Sequence record: NC_028847.1
Reading direction: 5' to 3' (one strand)
Source of the DNA: Escherichia phage QL01
Length of the DNA: 64,000 nt
Positions within the stretch are counted from its first letter, which is position 1; every line of letters begins with the position of its first letter. The notes below the pieces were generated by a model. That model searched no databases and was not told the DNA's origin. It saw only the letters and a list, made by a program, of their open reading frames with translations. Of the stretch, positions 33,778 to 38,537 are shown piece by piece. The translations under genes were made by a program, and so were the position numbers.

Positions 33778-34416
33778 TTAACCTCGAGCAATCCATTCAA
33801 CTGCGGCATTATTACGAAGGGATTCGATTGCTGCGATATCGTCCCATGAATTAACCTTTACGGCCAAATTAGGTTTAAAGTCACGTTCACCACGAGCCAA
33901 CCAATAAACTTGGATATCCATGAGAACATTAGATGCGGCATCACAGTGGTGAGCCAAATCATCAACATAAAACTTAATACGTTTACCGTACGTATTTTTA
34001 GCTCTTATGAAGAGGTCTTCTTTTGATTCTGAATGACCACACATCAGAATCTCCTTGAATGCGCCAGGGAACAAAGCATTCAAATTGAATTGTCTATTCA
34101 GCAGTGCATCAATTGAGTCGCCTAGCGCAGTCACGGCTACAAAATCGAAGTCTTTTTTGAGCTTGTTGATATGTTTTAATGCGTCCATGTAAGGAGACAG
34201 ATAACGAATAAAATCTGACTGATTGTACTTCTCGATTAAACGAGCGCCTAATTCATTATCACAATTAAACAGCTCACCAGGAGATAAGAAACGTTCGTCC
34301 TGAATCATATTCAAAATATGTTCTAAAGGCAAATTATATTTCTGTGCGAAATAAGGCAAGCCGGACTGCCAACTTAAACATACTCCATCGATATCTGTTA
34401 AGATAACTGGTTTCAT
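33778..34416 (-). CDS. HAD-superfamily-like hydrolase (30.2 position)
   Basis: N-terminal ILTDIDGV resembles HAD motif I (DxDG); 212 aa. Confidence 0.55.
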   Translation of the reverse strand: MKPVILTDIDGVCLSWQSGLPYFAQKYNLPLEHILNMIQDERFLSPGELFNCDNELGARLIEKYNQSDFIRYLSPYMDALKHINKLKKDFDFVAVTALGDSIDALLNRQFNLNALFPGAFKEILMCGHSESKEDLFIRAKNTYGKRIKFYVDDLAHHCDAASNVLMDIQVYWLARGERDFKPNLAVKVNSWDDIAAIESLRNNAAVEWIARG

Positions 34417-34871
34417 AATAAATCTCTCAATTTGTTTAGGATGTCGATAAACTCTTTTTCAGTTAGTATTGTATCACATTCTGTAAGGTGGCTCGCCATC
34501 GAATGCTTTAAAACTTTGCCCTTTGTAGCTTGTAATGCGTCGCGGAATCCTTTGTTTTGGAGCGCTGCTTCAAAATATGCATTTGTATACAACTCTTTCC
34601 ATGATGTAGAGTATCTTGAAAAGGGAATTCCAAGCCAGAAAAGCGTCCCACGGTCCGCAGCTCTTGCATAAGCTCTTCCAGTTTGTTGTGCGGCCAGACC
34701 GGACATCCCAAATATACGTTTTTGTTGTTCATGATTTCTCACCTTACACCCTTGGAGGAATCCTTCGAGCCCTCCAAATTGGATACCATCCATAACGAAA
34801 GGCCATTTAGCAAAGTTACTTAATGCACATGATGGCCATGGAAAATTGCTTCTTATTTCTAACTCAGACAT
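34413..34871 (-). CDS. NADAR/YbiA-like domain protein (30.3 position)
   Basis: Motif pattern LSNF...WPF..DG..F...E.FLQ resembles NADAR (YbiA-like) family signature; start placed at internal ATG overlapping upstream stop. Confidence 0.55.
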   Translation of the reverse strand: MSELEIRSNFPWPSCALSNFAKWPFVMDGIQFGGLEGFLQGCKVRNHEQQKRIFGMSGLAAQQTGRAYARAADRGTLFWLGIPFSRYSTSWKELYTNAYFEAALQNKGFRDALQATKGKVLKHSMASHLTECDTILTEKEFIDILNKLRDLL

Positions 34872-35076
34872 CTTTGACACTTATAATTTCGACATCAGCC
34901 CAATGACCATAACCAGGTAGACGGTCTTCAATAGATAATCCGCCATCAGATTTCAGCATTTTAATTGTTTTAGTATATGGTTCATCTTGTGGATGCACAG
35001 GAGATAAATCAGTTACACGATAAGTCACTTCGACCATTTCCGTACCTAATAATTTCTGAATCAATTTCTTAAACAT
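34864..35076 (-). CDS. hypothetical protein
   Basis: 70 aa ORF with GAGGA SD. Confidence 0.5.
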   Translation of the reverse strand: MFKKLIQKLLGTEMVEVTYRVTDLSPVHPQDEPYTKTIKMLKSDGGLSIEDRLPGYGHWADVEIISVKDV

Positions 35077-35077
35077 A

Positions 35078-35272
35078 TTATCCTCGCTTTAAACATTTGA
35101 TTACAGACAGTTCACCGCCCATGCGAACGTCTTCAGTTCCATCGACCCATAAGACGGTGTAGGCTTCTTTAATAGTAACATTACCTAATTTAAAAGCAGG
35201 TAGAACCTTGGAAATCATTCCAGGAATACCTACACCTTTTAACTGAACCGTTTGCGATAAGAATAATTTCAT
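35078..35272 (-). CDS. hypothetical protein
   Basis: 64 aa ORF, tightly packed with neighbours. Confidence 0.45.
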   Translation of the reverse strand: MKLFLSQTVQLKGVGIPGMISKVLPAFKLGNVTIKEAYTVLWVDGTEDVRMGGELSVIKCLKRG

Positions 35273-35273
35273 G

Positions 35274-35570
35274 TTAGCCTCGGTATTTCATTTGGAAGCA
35301 ATGCTGCTCGTCACATTCAATAAAGAACTTGCGGTCTGCAGCAGAAATAATAATTCGTTCATCTTGACGGGCGTCCGTTTTGATAGATTTCATATCATAA
35401 GACACTTTATCATACGGTATATAGATTTTATACACGTCGCCATTCTGGGCGAAATCAACACGGAATAGCTCTAGACCTATTAAATCAGTTACAAGACTGT
35501 TTATAGCATAGAACCCGTCAAGCTGGCTAGTAGGCAAACAGTACCATTTACCTTCAATAAACTCTAACAT
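35274..35570 (-). CDS. hypothetical protein
   Basis: Track start is TTG; internal ATG (MLEFIEGKWY...) has GAGG SD. Confidence 0.5.
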   Translation of the reverse strand: MLEFIEGKWYCLPTSQLDGFYAINSLVTDLIGLELFRVDFAQNGDVYKIYIPYDKVSYDMKSIKTDARQDERIIISAADRKFFIECDEQHCFQMKYRG

Positions 35571-35578
35571 AATTAACC

Positions 35579-35866
35579 TCAATATCTCATCTGAAAGCCG
35601 TGTGATTTAACATTACCACCATAGATGTCAGAGGTATTGACTTCACGGGCGACACTTGGGTCGATATTGATATCATGGTTGAGCTTAGTGATTGCTAGGG
35701 TATCACGACCATTAACAGTACGGAATTCTACCGGGCATACAACATCAGCATAGGCCTTAATAGATTCACGAGTGGGTTGTTTGTCGGCAGGAACGTCTTT
35801 ACCTGCTTTAGAGAAAACAACTTCACAGAAATTTTTACGAGTATCAAAATAAGTGGTCATAAACAT
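35579..35866 (-). CDS. hypothetical protein
   Basis: Internal ATG (MFMTTYF...) preceded by GAGGAAAA SD. Confidence 0.5.
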   Translation of the reverse strand: MFMTTYFDTRKNFCEVVFSKAGKDVPADKQPTRESIKAYADVVCPVEFRTVNGRDTLAITKLNHDINIDPSVAREVNTSDIYGGNVKSHGFQMRY

Positions 35867-35882
35867 AATATTTTCCTCAAAG

Positions 35883-35898
35883 GAGGCCGAAGCCTCCA
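35883..35898 (-). terminator. hairpin (GGAGGC-UUCG-GCCUCC) after 35908..36273 ORF
   Basis: 6-bp stem with UUCG loop seen in sequence. Confidence 0.45.
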
Positions 35899-35907
35899 TT
35901 TTTAAGA

Positions 35908-36273
35908 TTAGATGTCGAATTCATTCAGAACTACATCAAAGATTGCTTCCAGGTGTTCAGGTTTAGCTCGGTTGCTCAGGATGTGACGAATCCAAGTTTT
36001 AACCAGAAGCTTACGATTAACACCGTTCCAGCAAGGATGGGTACCTAAATCACGTTGACGGAAATCATCATCTAAAGCGATTTTAAAAGTAGAACCTTCC
36101 ATTGTGATTGAAACCGTAATACCATTTTCAAAGCGCATATAAACGTAGTTAGGAGTCATGCACTGTTCGATTTCGCACACCGCGCCGTTGTTGTGTTTCC
36201 ACAGGCAAATAACTTCAGAAGAACCAGCGATACCGTTAGAAACATATTTACGTTCGAAGTTGATGTAGTTCAT
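35908..36273 (-). CDS. hypothetical protein (early gene)
   Basis: 121 aa ORF with GGAGAATAAA-ATG leader shared with 36347..36679 gene; early promoter upstream. Confidence 0.6.
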   Translation of the reverse strand: MNYINFERKYVSNGIAGSSEVICLWKHNNGAVCEIEQCMTPNYVYMRFENGITVSITMEGSTFKIALDDDFRQRDLGTHPCWNGVNRKLLVKTWIRHILSNRAKPEHLEAIFDVVLNEFDI

Positions 36274-36318
36274 TTTATTCTCCAGTTTGTTTTCGTATTA
36301 TTTGGTACAGGTCTATAA
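36274..36318 (-). repeat. ~45-bp leader repeat copy 1 (TATAGAC.TGTACCAAATAATAC.AAAACAAACTGGAGAATAAA-ATG)
   Basis: Near-identical to 36680..36724; duplicated 5' leader/SD region of two adjacent early genes. Confidence 0.7.
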
Positions 36319-36344
36319 TAACACAACCTGTACCAAAGTAAAAC
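36315..36344 (-). promoter_or_regulatory. early promoter (TTTTAC-N17-TATTAT)
   Basis: Motif upstream of 35908..36273 ORF; embedded in inverted repeat GGTACAGGT/ACCTGTACC. Confidence 0.45.
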
Positions 36345-36346
36345 AT

Positions 36347-36679
36347 TTATTTCACAACATTCCAATTTTTCATATCAAGTTTACCAACTTTTTTCATCTG
36401 AGCAATCAGACGTTCAGCACGTGTACGGGCATTAACATAATAGAATTCACCATTTTTGTTTTCTTCAATACGACCAGTAATTACAGTTTTCAGTTCATAA
36501 ATCCAACCTGTAAAGAAGTTGTGAAGCTCGATGGTGAATGTAAAATCAGTACCCATACCTTCAGTTGTTTCAACTTCGATGATATCACCTTCAACTGCAG
36601 TCAGGACCCACATGGTTTCTTGATATTCACCGTTGAAACATTTAGCTTTAACAGATGCATTCAGATTTACAGTTTTCAT
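36347..36679 (-). CDS. hypothetical protein (early gene)
   Basis: 110 aa ORF with identical leader/SD to 35908..36273; early promoter upstream. Confidence 0.6.
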   Translation of the reverse strand: MKTVNLNASVKAKCFNGEYQETMWVLTAVEGDIIEVETTEGMGTDFTFTIELHNFFTGWIYELKTVITGRIEENKNGEFYYVNARTRAERLIAQMKKVGKLDMKNWNVVK

Positions 36680-36724
36680 TTTATTCTCCAGTTTGTTTTA
36701 GTATTATTTGGTACATGTCTATAG
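36680..36724 (-). repeat. ~45-bp leader repeat copy 2
   Basis: Differs from copy 1 at two positions. Confidence 0.7.
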
Positions 36725-36749
36725 TATCATGCCTACCGGAGATGTACAC
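36721..36749 (-). promoter_or_regulatory. early promoter (GTGTAC-N17-TACTAT)
   Basis: Motif upstream of 36347..36679 ORF. Confidence 0.45.
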
Positions 36750-36775
36750 CCTTTTTTAAAGATTTAGAAACAAAA

Positions 36776-36797
36776 ATGGGACTCCGAAGAGTCCCAT
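36776..36797 (-). terminator. hairpin terminator (GGGACUC-UUCG-GAGUCCC on minus strand) after 53-aa ORF
   Basis: 7-9 bp stem, UUCG loop, U-rich tail on minus strand. Confidence 0.6.
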
Positions 36798-36800
36798 AAC

Positions 36801-36962
36801 TTATGCCTGAGGCTTACCAAAGCAAGCAGCATCTGCACGCAATACTGCACGAGCACGAGCTTGAAGCTTATCAACTACCTGATTGATACGCTTGTTGGAC
36901 GCACGCTTGTAACCAGCGCGTTTAGAGGTACCGTCAACTACTTTAACTTCTTTCTTAGCCAT
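36801..36962 (-). CDS. hypothetical small basic protein (53 aa)
   Basis: Manual read: MAKKEVKVVDGTSKRAGYKRASNKRINQVVDKLQARARAVLRADAACFGKPQA; followed by UUCG-hairpin terminator; below track cutoff. Confidence 0.45.
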   Translation of the reverse strand: MAKKEVKVVDGTSKRAGYKRASNKRINQVVDKLQARARAVLRADAACFGKPQA

Positions 36963-37224
36963 TTTAAATCTCTTAAATTAGGATGCAGGACTTATTGGCG
37001 TTGCCTGCGCAAGCCCTCAAGGGGAACATAGGTTTCGGATATTTAACGACAGGATAACCATAAACCTCGTCATCATACCAACCACGACTTAGACAGATAA
37101 CCTTTTTCTGACGCGTGATAGTACAAAATACATTCAAGAGGTACACCGTAAAACTGTTGGGGTCTTAAAACTATAATGATTCGCAAATCATTAATCAAAC
37201 AGTTCGACGGCTCCTCGATTTAAC

Positions 37225-37473
37225 TTACTTCAGGGTAATAATAAAATGACGTACTGCTTTACGAGCTGCTGAAGCCAAAGGCTTAGCAAATTTCAGTTCA
37301 TCTTTAGCTTCCAGTTCAGCAGCCAGAGTAGCCTGAGCAGGATTCAGATGTTTGAAATAACGCAGGATTTCCAGTGCTTCGGCCTCAACATCAATAGATG
37401 CGCCGTAGTTTTCGTGACCGTTGTTCCAAGCGTTGCGTTGCAGTTCAAGAGCGTGATTCAATTGTTTGTTCAT
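37225..37473 (-). CDS. rIII: rIII lysis inhibition accessory protein
   Basis: 82 aa, same length as T4 rIII as recalled, located between gene 31 and the 30.x cluster. Confidence 0.8.
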   Translation of the reverse strand: MNKQLNHALELQRNAWNNGHENYGASIDVEAEALEILRYFKHLNPAQATLAAELEAKDELKFAKPLASAARKAVRHFIITLK

Positions 37474-37619
37474 TTTAGTTTCTCAATTCGAGATAAAGAT
37501 TGGTGGACACGTTCTTCTGAATTTCACTTCCTTTCGGCAAGTCTCTCAGTTGTAGTCCACCGCTTAGGATTCTCCGGTTAACTAACTAGTCCGGCAGCCA
37601 ATCCATATTATTATTTATA

Positions 37620-37943
37620 TCACTTATAAAGGCAAGGAATAGCTTTATAGTGACAGGTAACGAATTTTTGTTTAATTTCTTTAGGTTGTTTAATACCCAA
37701 TGCAACCAACGGATGAGGCACGTTAGCAATCTTACCAACAGGAAGTGGAGTCAAATCGCCTACTTCACAAAAATCTTCAGGGACATCAGGTCCTACAGAA
37801 TAAATTTCACAAAGTTCAGGGATTTCACCTTGATGAAGTTTGCCAATAACGATACCAGATGCAGTAGTTTCTTCATCACCGGCTTGTTTTGGTTCGGAAA
37901 CGAGAATAACATATTCTCCGACCGCTTTAATAGGAAGTTCCAT
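37620..37943 (-). CDS. 31: gp31 head assembly co-chaperonin (GroES-like)
   Basis: 107 aa; [20 protein letters not shown]...[43 protein letters not shown] match T4 gp31. Confidence 0.96.
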
Positions 37944-38001
37944 ATTTAATCCATATTGTTTTGTTGATAGATTAATAATAACACGCTATTCTTAAAGCAT
38001 A

Positions 38002-38301
38002 TTACAGGACAAGCAGAGTTTCAGTCTGAAGGCCGTTAATAGAAATCAGCTTATCGAAACGGAATGAGCGCCAATCATTAACCTTGGTATCAAATACTCT
38101 GATATAATTAACAGGTTCTTTATTGGCTTCTGGCCCAGGGGCCTGGACTTCTTTATACGGCAGCAGGTCTAAGTCGCGAGTACAAGTCATACGACGGGCA
38201 CTACCATCAGCTTTTTCAAACAGGACTTCGTGAAAACCAACAGACAAAATAGTCTTGACTTTTTCACGGAGACGAATAGTTTCTTGTTCGGTTAAAATCA
38301 T
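38002..38301 (-). CDS. hypothetical protein (31.1 position)
   Basis: 99 aa ORF with ATG start, between 31 and cd. Confidence 0.55.
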   Translation of the reverse strand: MILTEQETIRLREKVKTILSVGFHEVLFEKADGSARRMTCTRDLDLLPYKEVQAPGPEANKEPVNYIRVFDTKVNDWRSFRFDKLISINGLQTETLLVL

Positions 38302-38303
38302 AA

Positions 38304-38537
38304 TTATTCCAGAATAGTTTTGATAGTGGTTGCATTACGCTCTTTTAGAGCTCTTAATAGGCTATGGCAATTATCAAGAATAGGCACCGTTTTATATTTC
38401 ATTTCAGCGCGAACCCACTCGGATTTATAGTACGATTTCCAACGAGAGAAAAAGTACTTTTTATATTCTACTGAATAGGCTATCAGGTTTTCACCTTTTG
38501 AGTTCAGACCTGAAAATTTAACTAGACGAAATTTCAT
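38304..38537 (-). CDS. hypothetical protein (31.2 position)
   Basis: 77 aa ORF, ATG overlaps cd stop. Confidence 0.55.
   Translation of the reverse strand: MKFRLVKFSGLNSKGENLIAYSVEYKKYFFSRWKSYYKSEWVRAEMKYKTVPILDNCHSLLRALKERNATTIKTILE

Follow-up and report, generated by a model that had tools for sequence, protein, structure and literature searches.

A conserved non-coding region of structured RNA modules between genes rIII and 30.9 of T4-type phages

The DNA analyzed here (the window) is a 64,000-nucleotide stretch of Escherichia phage QL01 (NC_028847.1), which is a JS98/Bp7-like Dhakavirus, a T4-type phage. The locus of interest comprises rIII, a non-coding intercistronic gap, the small gene 30.9 and an intrinsic terminator (Table 1). 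A first-pass annotation, made from the sequence of the window, had drawn attention to about 260 bp without a convincing ORF after rIII, and to a lysine/arginine-rich ORF of 53 amino acids and a strong UUCG terminator that follow. All three were confirmed: the gap is exactly 262 nt long and lies on the minus strand, the ORF contains 14 K/R residues and belongs to the gp30.9 family, and the terminator has a 9-bp stem and a T-run. The description of the gap as unusually long also holds. In the annotated, near-identical phage IME281, the corresponding gap (263 nt) ranks second among 64 gene junctions in 41 kb; the longest junction, 447 nt, is an annotation gap, and the corresponding window sequence contains ORFs. 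The T4 counterpart is 244 nt long (NC_000866, 130541-130784), and equivalents of the terminator after 30.9 are present in T4, in ATK47 and at the related locus L029. Expression of rIII and 30.9 was reportedly the subject of a 2003 study by Driukas and Nivinskas (Biologija). Recent work ties the rIII product, a lysis-inhibition factor, to ribosomal protein S1 and the RegB nuclease (PMC9409239).

Table 1. Features of the rIII-30.9 locus and its surroundings in the window (positions are those of the window)
Feature	Position	Strand	Basis
Element G, nested three-helix RNA in the gene 31-rIII leader, outside the gap	37503-37561	-	
rIII, 82 aa, upstream gene of the transcription unit	37225-37473	-	PHROG 1457 'lysis inhibition accessory protein', E 5e-43; named rIII in relatives
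Non-coding intercistronic gap, 262 nt, mosaic of RNA modules B-C-E-F1-F2	36963-37224	-	
Module B, 25-bp composite hairpin	37138-37216	-	RNAalifold and covariation
Apical 8-bp hairpin of B with UGCG (UNCG-type) loop; inverted repeat of the first-pass annotation	37174-37193	-	
σ70-like match TTGATT-17-TATAGT inside B	37170-37198	-	9/12
Module C, predicted 16-bp hairpin, apical loop with GGUUAUC as in E	37075-37124	-	
Module E, H-type pseudoknot; S1 at 37044-37075, conserved loop GUUNNNGGUUAUC	37028-37075	-	Covariation
Modules F1 (CCCCUUGAGGG, 37014-37024), linker CUUGCG, and F2 (GCAGG...CCUGC, 36985-37008)	36985-37024	-	
AU-rich ribosome-binding region of 30.9, SD-like AAGAG, start codon 36960-36962	36960-36977	-	
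Gene 30.9, 53 aa, basic	36801-36962	-	PHROG 1427, E 4e-27; annotated 30.9 in JS98
Intrinsic terminator closing the rIII-30.9 unit, 9-bp stem, UUCG loop, T-run	36776-36797	-	

The gap is syntenic in 774 phage records, at one place per record. Identity to T4 and ATK47 is 96-97% for blocks B and E/F, compared with 84-91% for rIII and 70-73% for 30.9. Neighboring genes show 70-84% identity to T4, and fourfold-degenerate sites of rIII and 30.8 show 54%; against this last value, the 183 identical positions out of 190 in the constrained blocks correspond to a binomial P of ~3e-39. Across four genera, the RNA blocks (~190 nt) are 92-98% identical, compared with 73-91% for the flanking genes. Identity to T4 and ATK47 falls sharply at module edges and is merely 65-75% in the ribosome-binding region of 30.9, and module variants are exchanged between phage genera. 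When 15 representative homologous gaps were inspected on both strands, no conserved ORF was found. The longest ORFs in the gap start with GTG and TTG and run to 57 and 41 codons. They are preserved neither in ATK47, T4, RB14 and JS98 nor in phages further away, and close relatives differ in frame through 1-nt indels. An 18-codon upstream ORF of E. coli-type phages, MFPLRACAGNANKSCILI, was rejected; its AUG is ACG at one related locus (L014), it is missing in distant phages, and it has no SD sequence. ORFs called within the gap are almost certainly false.

Searches for known RNA families with Rfam 15 (cmscan, E<=10), run on positions 35500-38500 and on 36950-37235 alone, gave chance-level matches only (mcrA, 11.7 bits versus a gathering score of 57.6; DdR11, 13.4 versus 65). 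Likewise, no Rfam family was found in six related loci or in the JS98 gap, and ARAGORN predicted no tRNA or tmRNA genes in the window. Comparison of the gap with 5,426 E. coli genomes by blastn returned no match, hence no sign of host mimicry, and the same search against the 64-kb window returned no second copy. A full-text literature search found no description of the gap RNA, though a 2023 catalog of more than 10,000 candidate viral RNAs may include it (PMC10690425).

The promoter-proximal module, B, lies between the two cistrons. Its lower stem of 4, 5 and 8 bp (from the base upward, GAGG/CCUC, GCCGU/ACGGU and GAACUGUU/AACAGUUU) is followed by an apical stem of 8 bp, and its internal loop is large and asymmetric, with 4 nt on the 5' side and 20 nt on the 3' side. 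RNAalifold analysis of 12 B sequences yielded 25 pairs, with 99% of the cells paired and compensatory double changes in five pairs; none of 500 shuffles was as good, and slid registers paired at 25-63%. The G.U pairs of the module are conserved in all 12 sequences, and its folding z-score is -4.1. Module B is present in 659 phage records, in a single place each, and is 93-98% identical in other genera. The inverted repeat noticed in the first-pass annotation is real and forms the apical hairpin, AAUGAUU-UGCG-AAUCAUU, whose stem can be lengthened to 8 bp; the loop, however, is 4 nt long, since the parse with TGCGA counts one A twice. In a variant of this hairpin (L007/O157tp3), two pairs are changed on both sides (A-U to U.G and U-A to C-G), and the loop is UACG or UGCG. 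The basal helix of B sequesters a GGAG motif (37211-37214). The RegB nuclease cleaves unpaired intergenic GGAG, and secondary structure protects the motif (PMC3014915).

Module E, located 66-110 nt upstream of the 30.9 AUG, has the features of an H-type pseudoknot upstream of a ribosome-binding site: the GGUU of its hairpin loop (37056-37059) pairs with a downstream AACC (37031-37034), and the pairing is supported by covariation. In stem S1, pair 13-34 is U-A in eight sequences, A-U in six and G-C in one, and pair 14-33 is C-G in eight and G-C in seven. In the pseudoknot helix, pair 24-52 is G-C in 13 sequences and A-U in two, and pair 23-53 is U-A in six and A-U in four. The covariation score was 0.319, versus 0.147 ± 0.023 in shuffles (0/500), and 88% of the cells were paired, versus 36-53% in slid registers. 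A covariance model of E, run with filters off, found a single copy in the 64-kb window, while matches of a loose DNA pattern for E in IMG/VR were mostly due to chance. Reading the 'UGAUGA...GAAAC' of E as a hammerhead or a C/D box was rejected, as the spacing is wrong and there is no Rfam match. Loop sequences of the modules are invariant, GGUUAUC being common to C and E.

The slot between B and E holds exchangeable cassettes: it is empty in T4, is occupied by module C in the window, and in JS98 and numerous further phages contains D, a module of 135 nt. Module C has a folding z-score of -2.6. One of its pairs shows a compensatory change (A-U to C-G) and two of its cells are broken; with so few variants, its support is weak. 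Module D, found in 404 phage records, folds as a domain of its own, with seven helices and 20 covarying pairs. Together with an A-like hairpin, it also occurs in Yersinia phage JC221 (87 bits for D), at another locus with no 30.9 nearby. The 20-mer core of D is absent from 185,579 GTDB genomes. A likeness of D to the RNase P S-domain, seen by eye, was discarded; it has no Rfam support, and the order of elements would be permuted.

F1 with its linker, followed by a stem-loop that is either F2 or G, always adjoins the 30.9 start, in E. coli-type and in Klebsiella-type phages. F1 and the linker are kept in both phage types, with only modest covariation. Helix F2 has two compensatory pairs at one related locus (GCAGG/CCUGC to ACUGG/CCAGU in L019) and one G.U pair at another (L017). 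For F1/F2, thermodynamics by itself is not significant, and RNAalifold run on the near-invariant E. coli-type set favors a different fold. In T4, a U-rich tract, AUUUUCAUUU, comes after the F2 hairpin; the window has AUCCUAAUUU there. Element G, which in the window belongs to the leader ahead of rIII, sits upstream of 30.9 instead in Klebsiella-type phages; seven of its 14 pairs have compensatory changes. The pattern TACAAC...AGAACGTG of G occurs once in the window, versus 0.01 expected, and a single time at each related locus. For 30.9, no pairing was found that clearly sequesters its SD or AUG. Of the properties of a riboswitch, a conserved multi-helix RNA is present; neither a terminator nor a clear alternative anti-SD pairing was found, and no known class matched.

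The folding energy of the gap as a whole is not significant (z = -1.1), and individually only B, C and G stand out. Helices nevertheless covary well above the shuffle and slide controls, and the G.U pairs work only on the gene-sense strand. The covariance analysis across relatives that had been proposed with the first-pass annotation thus supports several helices, and among the options given there (small RNA, long structured 5' leader, decayed gene), the idea of a structured RNA is supported and the decayed gene is rejected. We conclude that the gap is non-coding and strongly constrained, and that B, the E pseudoknot and F2 form helices on the sense strand; support for C and F1 is weaker.

The σ70-like match inside B is probably incidental. 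Seven such matches are present in the region, versus 5.1 ± 2.3 in shuffles, and most relatives, including T4, have CTGATT (8/12 match, with the -35 element at 3/6). The match does not fit the T4-type early consensus TTTACW-N17-TAYWAT (PMC4122927). Inspection of the gap for the MotA box TGCTT and for the late consensus TATAAATA revealed neither; the latter is found upstream of rIII, at 37612-37619. Terminator-like sites are all outside the gap, a weak one being within the 30.9 coding region and the strong one being the UUCG terminator. Of the convincing promoter and the terminator that an independent sRNA gene should possess, neither was found in the gap, with no terminator-like site in 36963-37224. 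Because the gap lacks a terminator or a convincing promoter, polymerase from promoters upstream of rIII is expected to read to the UUCG terminator, and a leader or intercistronic RNA is therefore favored.

The downstream product, gp30.9, has a net charge of about +10 and a conserved core, SKRAGYKRxSNxRINQ. All 41 of its homologues come from T4-like phages of Enterobacterales. An exhaustive profile search of 1.8 billion representatives returned only 17 clusters of small basic phage proteins, one of them spurious (a repeat protein). No relative was found in Pfam or PDB, and no homology to ribosomal proteins was detected. AlphaFold predicts a disordered basic N-terminus and one helix at residues 28-48 (mean pLDDT 69), a structure of too little complexity for fold searching. 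By this model, a small, very basic and mostly disordered protein with one helix looks as would be expected of an RNA-binding peptide. T4-type gp30.9 is found with either F2 or G upstream, and there is therefore no sign of protein-RNA co-evolution. At locus L029, a 30.9 homologue begins 9 nt after rIII, with no long leader; a 30.9-type gene can therefore be expressed without one.

The reading that we prefer, with a probability of about 0.5, is that the gap is a structured intercistronic region, at once the 3' UTR of rIII and the 5' leader of 30.9, which acts in cis after transcription. The 262 nt would be transcribed within the rIII-30.9 message and would fold into a chain of conserved RNA modules. 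The promoter-distal modules, E and F1-linker-F2, may serve as a translational operator or enhancer for 30.9; their binding partner is probably a small basic protein with affinity for RNA, gp30.9 itself being the obvious candidate. Protein-bound leader operators have precedents in T4, in genes 32, 43 and regA. Lying between the two cistrons, hairpin B could serve in processing of the message or in its stability, much as an RNase III site does, and may also hide GGAG from the phage RegB nuclease. The leader would in this way control the processing, stability or translation of 30.9. We infer action in cis from position only.

A serious if unlikely rival is that the modules are autonomous non-coding RNA domains, either excised from the rIII-30.9 transcript or working within it, which target a host or phage component in trans. 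They might function as a protein sponge or decoy, by base pairing through the GGUUAUC loops, or as a ligand-binding domain, and their adjacency to 30.9 would be historical. What makes this rival serious is that related modules occur elsewhere in one phage; with blocks that are modular and portable, a processed RNA has to be considered. The cassette architecture of the B-E slot, the invariant loops, the self-contained D domain, which JC221 carries away from any 30.9, and the retention of 30.9 without the RNA at L029 all speak for such domains, as does the conservation of the blocks, which far exceeds that of either flanking gene. On the other hand, no internal terminator or credible promoter is available to yield a discrete RNA, F1-linker-F2/G is always attached to the 30.9 start, the B, C, E and F modules of the window are found at the rIII-30.9 locus only, in a single copy per genome, and no similarity to E. 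coli DNA suggests mimicry. Several observations sit uneasily with the leader model: conservation is much higher in the RNA blocks than in gp30.9, with no sign of co-evolution between the two; the 30.9 homologue at L029 does without a long leader; no clear masking of the 30.9 SD or AUG was found; and the D and A-like modules of JC221, together with exchange between genera, suit autonomous RNA modules.

The remaining explanations fare less well. The block might be mainly a DNA element, an early σ70 promoter for 30.9 combined with a stem-loop, akin to the recombination-mediating PeSL cassettes. The 9/12 match with a hairpin overlapping its spacer, as in PeSLs, the shuffling of module variants between genera, and the real PeSL-like promoters just downstream, ahead of 30.8 and 30.7, would agree with this idea, but it is improbable: the match is no better than chance and is weaker in most relatives, it has neither the early consensus nor an A/T-rich upstream element, the gap is present in a single copy per genome while PeSLs are dispersed, and a promoter cannot account for 190 constrained bases. 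Moreover, compensatory changes and conserved G.U pairs lie on both sides of the putative start, and the transcript must therefore start upstream. Less probable still is a processive antitermination device of the lambda nut/N or HK022 put kind, formed by the RNA with or without gp30.9, which would modify RNA polymerase to pass the strong terminator after 30.9 and continue into 30.8-30 (DNA ligase). This idea is drawn purely from analogy. Delayed-early expression in T4 depends on read-through of terminators, and the order of promoter, structured RNA, small basic disordered protein and strong terminator mirrors pL-nutL-N-tL1. Yet no boxA/boxB or put resemblance is seen in sequence or structure, nor is there an Rfam match, the downstream genes have early promoters of their own, and at L029 both protein and terminator are present although the RNA is missing. 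Least credible is a decayed gene or a neutral spacer whose similarity stems from recent recombination alone. Spurious ORFs of 40-57 codons do exist, some depositors annotate 'hypothetical proteins' in the gap, and modules are indeed exchanged between genera; nonetheless, the ORFs are not conserved and 1-nt indels break their frames, the intact ORF that was sought among the 15 homologous gaps, as a sign of a pseudogene remnant, was not found, the gap is more conserved than the flanking genes in four genera, conservation drops sharply at module edges, and substitutions keep pairing, as 99% of the B cells show.

The gap RNA is absent from Rfam, and the locus is unannotated or mislabeled 'hypothetical protein' in hundreds of genomes. 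A conserved regulatory non-coding RNA has been noted as missing in the T4 group (PMC3014915). It is conceivable, though on balance doubtful, that the rIII-30.9 gap of T-even phages, T4 included, encodes an undescribed family of autonomous structured RNA modules (B, E and D) that acts as a riboregulator, be it an RNA released by processing that acts in trans or binds protein, or a leader that senses a ligand or a protein. If so, it would be the first conserved regulatory non-coding RNA of this group. Should the RNA prove to be only a leader for mRNA processing or stability, it would be a solid but ordinary addition. Since the RNA shares one operon with rIII and an uncharacterized basic protein, it offers a directly testable entry into post-transcriptional control in T-even phages.

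Several known systems resemble the rIII-30.9 RNA in part. The PeSLs of T4-type phages are dispersed, multi-copy stem-loop cassettes with an early promoter, TTTACW-N17-TAYWAT, that undergo modular shuffling (PMC2839356, PMC4122927). Similarly, the gap is built of short, conserved cassettes that encode no protein, bear a stem-loop and a sequence resembling a promoter, and are swapped between phages. Unlike PeSLs, it is single-copy and syntenic, and its RNA covariation spans the putative start; it has neither a consensus promoter joined to a stem-loop nor multiple dispersed copies at the borders of variable genes. Stable RNAs C and D (species 1 and 2) of the tRNA cluster are the only small non-tRNA RNAs recognized in T4 (PMC3014915). 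The rIII-30.9 RNA would likewise be a structured RNA encoded by a phage; it differs in lying at another locus and in having no detected tRNA-like fold. Module B, an irregular hairpin of ~25 bp with internal loops between two cistrons, is like the RNase III R-sites of T7 early genes. Such size and position are typical of R-sites, and in T7 the upstream mRNA is also stabilized. As an irregular hairpin of at least ~20 bp between cistrons, B is a candidate cleavage site; unlike R-sites, it has an asymmetric 4/20-nt loop, and its sequence is conserved far beyond the needs of RNase III recognition.

For the promoter-distal part, the leaders of E. coli ribosomal-protein genes (the rpsO/S15 pseudoknot, L20 and S4) offer one comparison, in that a conserved leader with a pseudoknot or hairpin directly precedes the gene for a small, highly basic and partly disordered protein, although gp30.9 has no detectable homology to ribosomal proteins. 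The other comparison is with the leader of T4 gene 32, in which a pseudoknot and an operator mediate autogenous translational repression. The 30.9 leader has no sequence similarity to it and no Rfam match; it is intercistronic and much longer (262 nt, five modules), its pseudoknot is ~70 nt from the start codon, and binding by gp30.9 is putative. The two leaders share the phage group, an H-type pseudoknot that lies upstream of the ribosome-binding site and is conserved among T-even phages, and a downstream gene for a nucleic-acid-binding protein (putatively so for gp30.9); the operators of gene 43 and regA are also comparable.

All genes of the region are carried by the minus strand (see table). 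The stretch 36680-37700 is 99-100% identical to the corresponding regions of Dhakavirus phages IME540, IME281, WG01 and Bp7, 95% identical to that of JS98, and is matched by more than 760 T4-like phage genomes. The first-pass annotation had described an unusually long non-coding stretch of about 260 bp after rIII, an inverted repeat, a basic 53-aa ORF and a strong UUCG terminator, and every one of these elements was found in the sequence. The gap measures exactly 262 nt and the ORF is gene 30.9. The inverted repeat, AAUGAUU-UGCG-AAUCAUU, is present and can be extended to 8 bp; its loop is 4 nt long, not 5 nt as proposed. In length, the gap ranks second among 64 junctions in 41 kb of the annotated twin genome, IME281, and the longest junction there reflects ORFs that were left unannotated and are also present in the window. 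The IME281 RefSeq annotation leaves 447 nt blank between 30.3 and 30.4 (window 34724-35170 (-); L164:18044-18492), where the window contains a 70-aa ORF (34864-35076) as well as the 5' portion of a longer ORF of 155 aa (34413-34880); this blank is an annotation gap, not non-coding DNA.

Features of the gene 31-30.8 region (window positions)
Feature	Position	Strand	Description
gene 31 (co-chaperonin)	37620-37943	-	
element G	37503-37561	-	nested three-helix RNA; 7/14 pairs compensatory
rIII	37225-37473	-	
gap	36963-37224	-	262 nt
module B	37138-37216	-	four stacked helices, 25 bp total
module C	37075-37124	-	predicted 16-bp hairpin, one compensatory pair
module E	37028-37075	-	hairpin + loop pairing; H-type pseudoknot
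F1 + linker CUUGCG + F2	36985-37024	-	ahead of 30.9 ribosome-binding site
gene 30.9	36801-36962	-	53 codons, 14 Lys/Arg
UUCG terminator	36776-36797	-	9-bp stem, UUCG loop, T-run
gene 30.8	36347-36679	-	

The gap is non-coding and constrained. No ORF of at least 25 codons on either strand was conserved among 15 representative gaps, and single-base indels shift the frame between close relatives. Blocks 37130-37224 and 36983-37077 are, respectively, 97% and 96% identical to T4, while identity to T4 is 79% for gene 31, 84% for rIII, 70% for 30.9, 77% for 30.8, and 54% at fourfold-degenerate sites of rIII and 30.8. Comparisons with Mosigvirus and Gaprivervirus revealed the same excess conservation. 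Over the 20 nt ahead of the 30.9 AUG and across the rIII stop codon, identity falls to 65-75%; the conserved blocks are therefore sharply bounded. A decayed gene, which had been offered as one explanation, is excluded by the unconserved ORFs, the one-nucleotide indels, and the presence of blocks more conserved than the neighboring genes, which is the opposite of a pseudogene pattern.

In module B, canonical pairing was observed in 99% of pair cells, with changes on both sides of five pairs among 12 distinct sequences. None of 500 shuffles was as good, slid registers paired in 25-63%, and the module folded alone gave a z of -4.1 relative to shuffles. The inverted repeat forms its apical hairpin; in a variant found in L007 (a Dhakavirus locus) and O157tp3, two pairs of this hairpin are swapped compensatorily and the UNCG loop is retained. 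Three conserved G.U pairs would read C.A on the opposite strand. We therefore conclude that the structure belongs to the strand transcribed with rIII and 30.9. In rIII and 30.9, L007 is 98-99% identical to the window; its module B is 82% identical, and this variant is common to Mosigvirus O157tp3 (loci L007:1750-1844, L166:301-399 and L167:301-391); Gaprivervirus SP18 has one of its compensatory pairs. The presence of a Mosigvirus variant in a Dhakavirus indicates that modules, besides being constrained, have recombined between genera independently of flanking genes. In T4- and Mosigvirus-type phages, a further hairpin, A, is located between the rIII stop and B (T4, L002:1355-1383; ATK47, L004:1170-1200), and changes from UCAC...GUGA to UCGC...GCGG with compensation. 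The window has no hairpin A, and its rIII stop codon leads nearly straight to B.

The slot of module C is empty in T4 and is occupied by a 135-nt module D in JS98 and about 400 other genomes; C is a cassette. Module D, absent from the window and located in JS98 (L008:1850-1984) and 17 other loci, is a closed seven-helix domain of 44 bp with 20 covarying pairs and invariant strands such as GCUAACGGUGUGCAACAGAUAAGAG. Records of 404 phages (Klebsiella, Escherichia, Enterobacter, Yersinia, Serratia, Erwinia and others) carry this domain, for the most part without annotation; it had no Rfam match, and its core 20-mer was not found in GTDB genomes. A diverged copy (87 bits, E 8e-19) lies at a different locus in Yersinia phage JC221 (L165:1399-1551), downstream of uvsY with no 30.9 nearby, in a stretch of ~800 nt that lacks credible genes and ends in a terminator; an A-like hairpin accompanies it. 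In the module E hairpin, covariation is strong at two pairs, one with three pair types and the other with two. The loop, an invariant GGUU, base-pairs with an AACC located 22 nt downstream, and exchanges of G-C to A-U and U-A to A-U in this loop-flank helix identify E as an H-type pseudoknot. F2 has two compensatory pairs in one relative (L019) and support for F1 is modest; the F1-F2 fold is less certain, since RNAalifold, run on the near-invariant E. coli-type sequences, favors an alternative. By these comparisons, the gap is a mosaic of RNA modules. The ATK47 record annotates a 10-nt "ori type 2 repeat" in the homologous gap, just before 30.9 (L004:1441-1450). No evidence for origin function was found at this repeat, and T4 is not known to have an origin at the map position of the gap.

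The gap is seen in every T4 annotation, where it spans 244 nt (NC_000866 130541-130784); "ORF 31.-2" of the older T4 record M37882 ran into it. A blastn search with the gap matched 774 phage records, at a single place in each and mostly without an annotated feature, and among 35 distinct regions of homology taken from GenBank and IMG/VR, gap length varies from 170 to 437 nt. In more distant T4-like phages 30.9 is absent or, in L029, a 44-aa homologue starts 9 nt after rIII and is followed by a UUCG terminator, without a long structured gap (L029:1725-1900); still more distant phages (L027, L028, L030-L032) have no 30.9 after rIII. Thus, the long gap is a trait of Enterobacterales-infecting Tevenvirinae; it is ancient and syntenic. 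The gap matched no Rfam family, tRNA or tmRNA and nothing in E. coli genomes, and no second copy was found within the 64-kb window.

Gene 30.9 is real, conserved, and confined to T4-like phages. Its product contains an invariant core, SKRAGYKRxSNxRINQ, has no relative in Pfam or PDB, and is predicted to consist of a disordered basic N-terminus and one helix; in this it resembles a peptide that binds RNA or DNA. The 146-nt gene 31-rIII leader includes element G (P1 GGUGGAC/GUCCACC, conserved internal loops UACAAC and GAAGAACGUG, a GAAA-capped tip), which has no Rfam match. In Klebsiella-type T4-like phages, G replaces F2 ahead of 30.9 instead of preceding rIII; the modules thus behave as portable leader cassettes directly ahead of a start codon. 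G is followed by a hairpin holding the rIII Shine-Dalgarno (UCUCGAAUUGAGA; 37481-37493 (-)), and a P1-type stem with such a hairpin is common to every rIII leader inspected.

We favor, with a probability of about 50%, a structured intercistronic RNA working in cis. Neither a MotA box nor a late promoter lies within the gap, the late consensus TATAAATA being located directly after the gene 31 stop (37612-37619). Terminator-like sites are absent from the gap; a weak one lies inside the 30.9 coding region and a strong one after it. With no convincing internal promoter and no internal terminator, the simplest transcript model is rIII-gap-30.9-terminator. A nut/put-like antitermination device is very improbable. 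A σ70-like TTGATT-17-TATAGT in module B (9/12 match) is probably incidental, as shuffles of the region give as many such matches; its TTGATT reads CTGATT in T4 and in most relatives, and the match departs from the early promoter consensus of T4-type phages (PMC4122927). Because covarying helices lie on both sides of the would-be start site, the transcript that forms the selected structure has to begin upstream. We consider it improbable that the gap holds a real promoter or a PeSL-like DNA cassette. Upstream of 30.8 and 30.7, similar GGUAC...GUACC stem-loops (36700-36745 and 36288-36354 (-)) enclose -10-like TATAG/TATTAT, one of them having TTTACT-16-TATTAT with an extended TG, and fit the PeSL (promoter-early stem-loop) cassettes of T4-type phages (PMC4122927).

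Neutral or recombinational similarity is the least probable explanation: the two conserved blocks share 183 of 190 positions with T4, for which P is about 3e-39 under neutrality at the fourfold-site rate. The main rival, which we judge rather unlikely, is that the modules are autonomous RNA domains, trans-acting after processing. It is favored by the modules being more conserved than gp30.9 and not co-varying with its subtype, by related modules in JC221 away from 30.9, and by L029 doing without them.

Structured phage mRNA leaders and intercistronic RNAs are known as a kind. No description of an RNA element at the rIII-30.9 gap was found in Rfam or among the full texts searched, and according to a 2010 review, T4 at that time had neither a characterized riboswitch nor a characterized regulatory RNA acting in trans (PMC3014915). 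There is a substantial chance that the gap RNA is a new riboregulator family.

For a cis-acting RNA, we infer binding partners, processing and regulatory outcome as follows. Hairpin B would be an inter-cistron processing or stability element of the RNase III type, and would mask a GGAG otherwise open to RegB, which cleaves unpaired intergenic GGAG, structure being protective (PMC3014915). The 30.9-proximal modules (the E pseudoknot and F1-linker-F2) would control the translation of 30.9, either as an operator or as an enhancer. The obvious candidate ligand of these modules would be gp30.9 itself, by analogy with the operators of T4 gene 32, gene 43 and regA, and with ribosomal-protein leaders.
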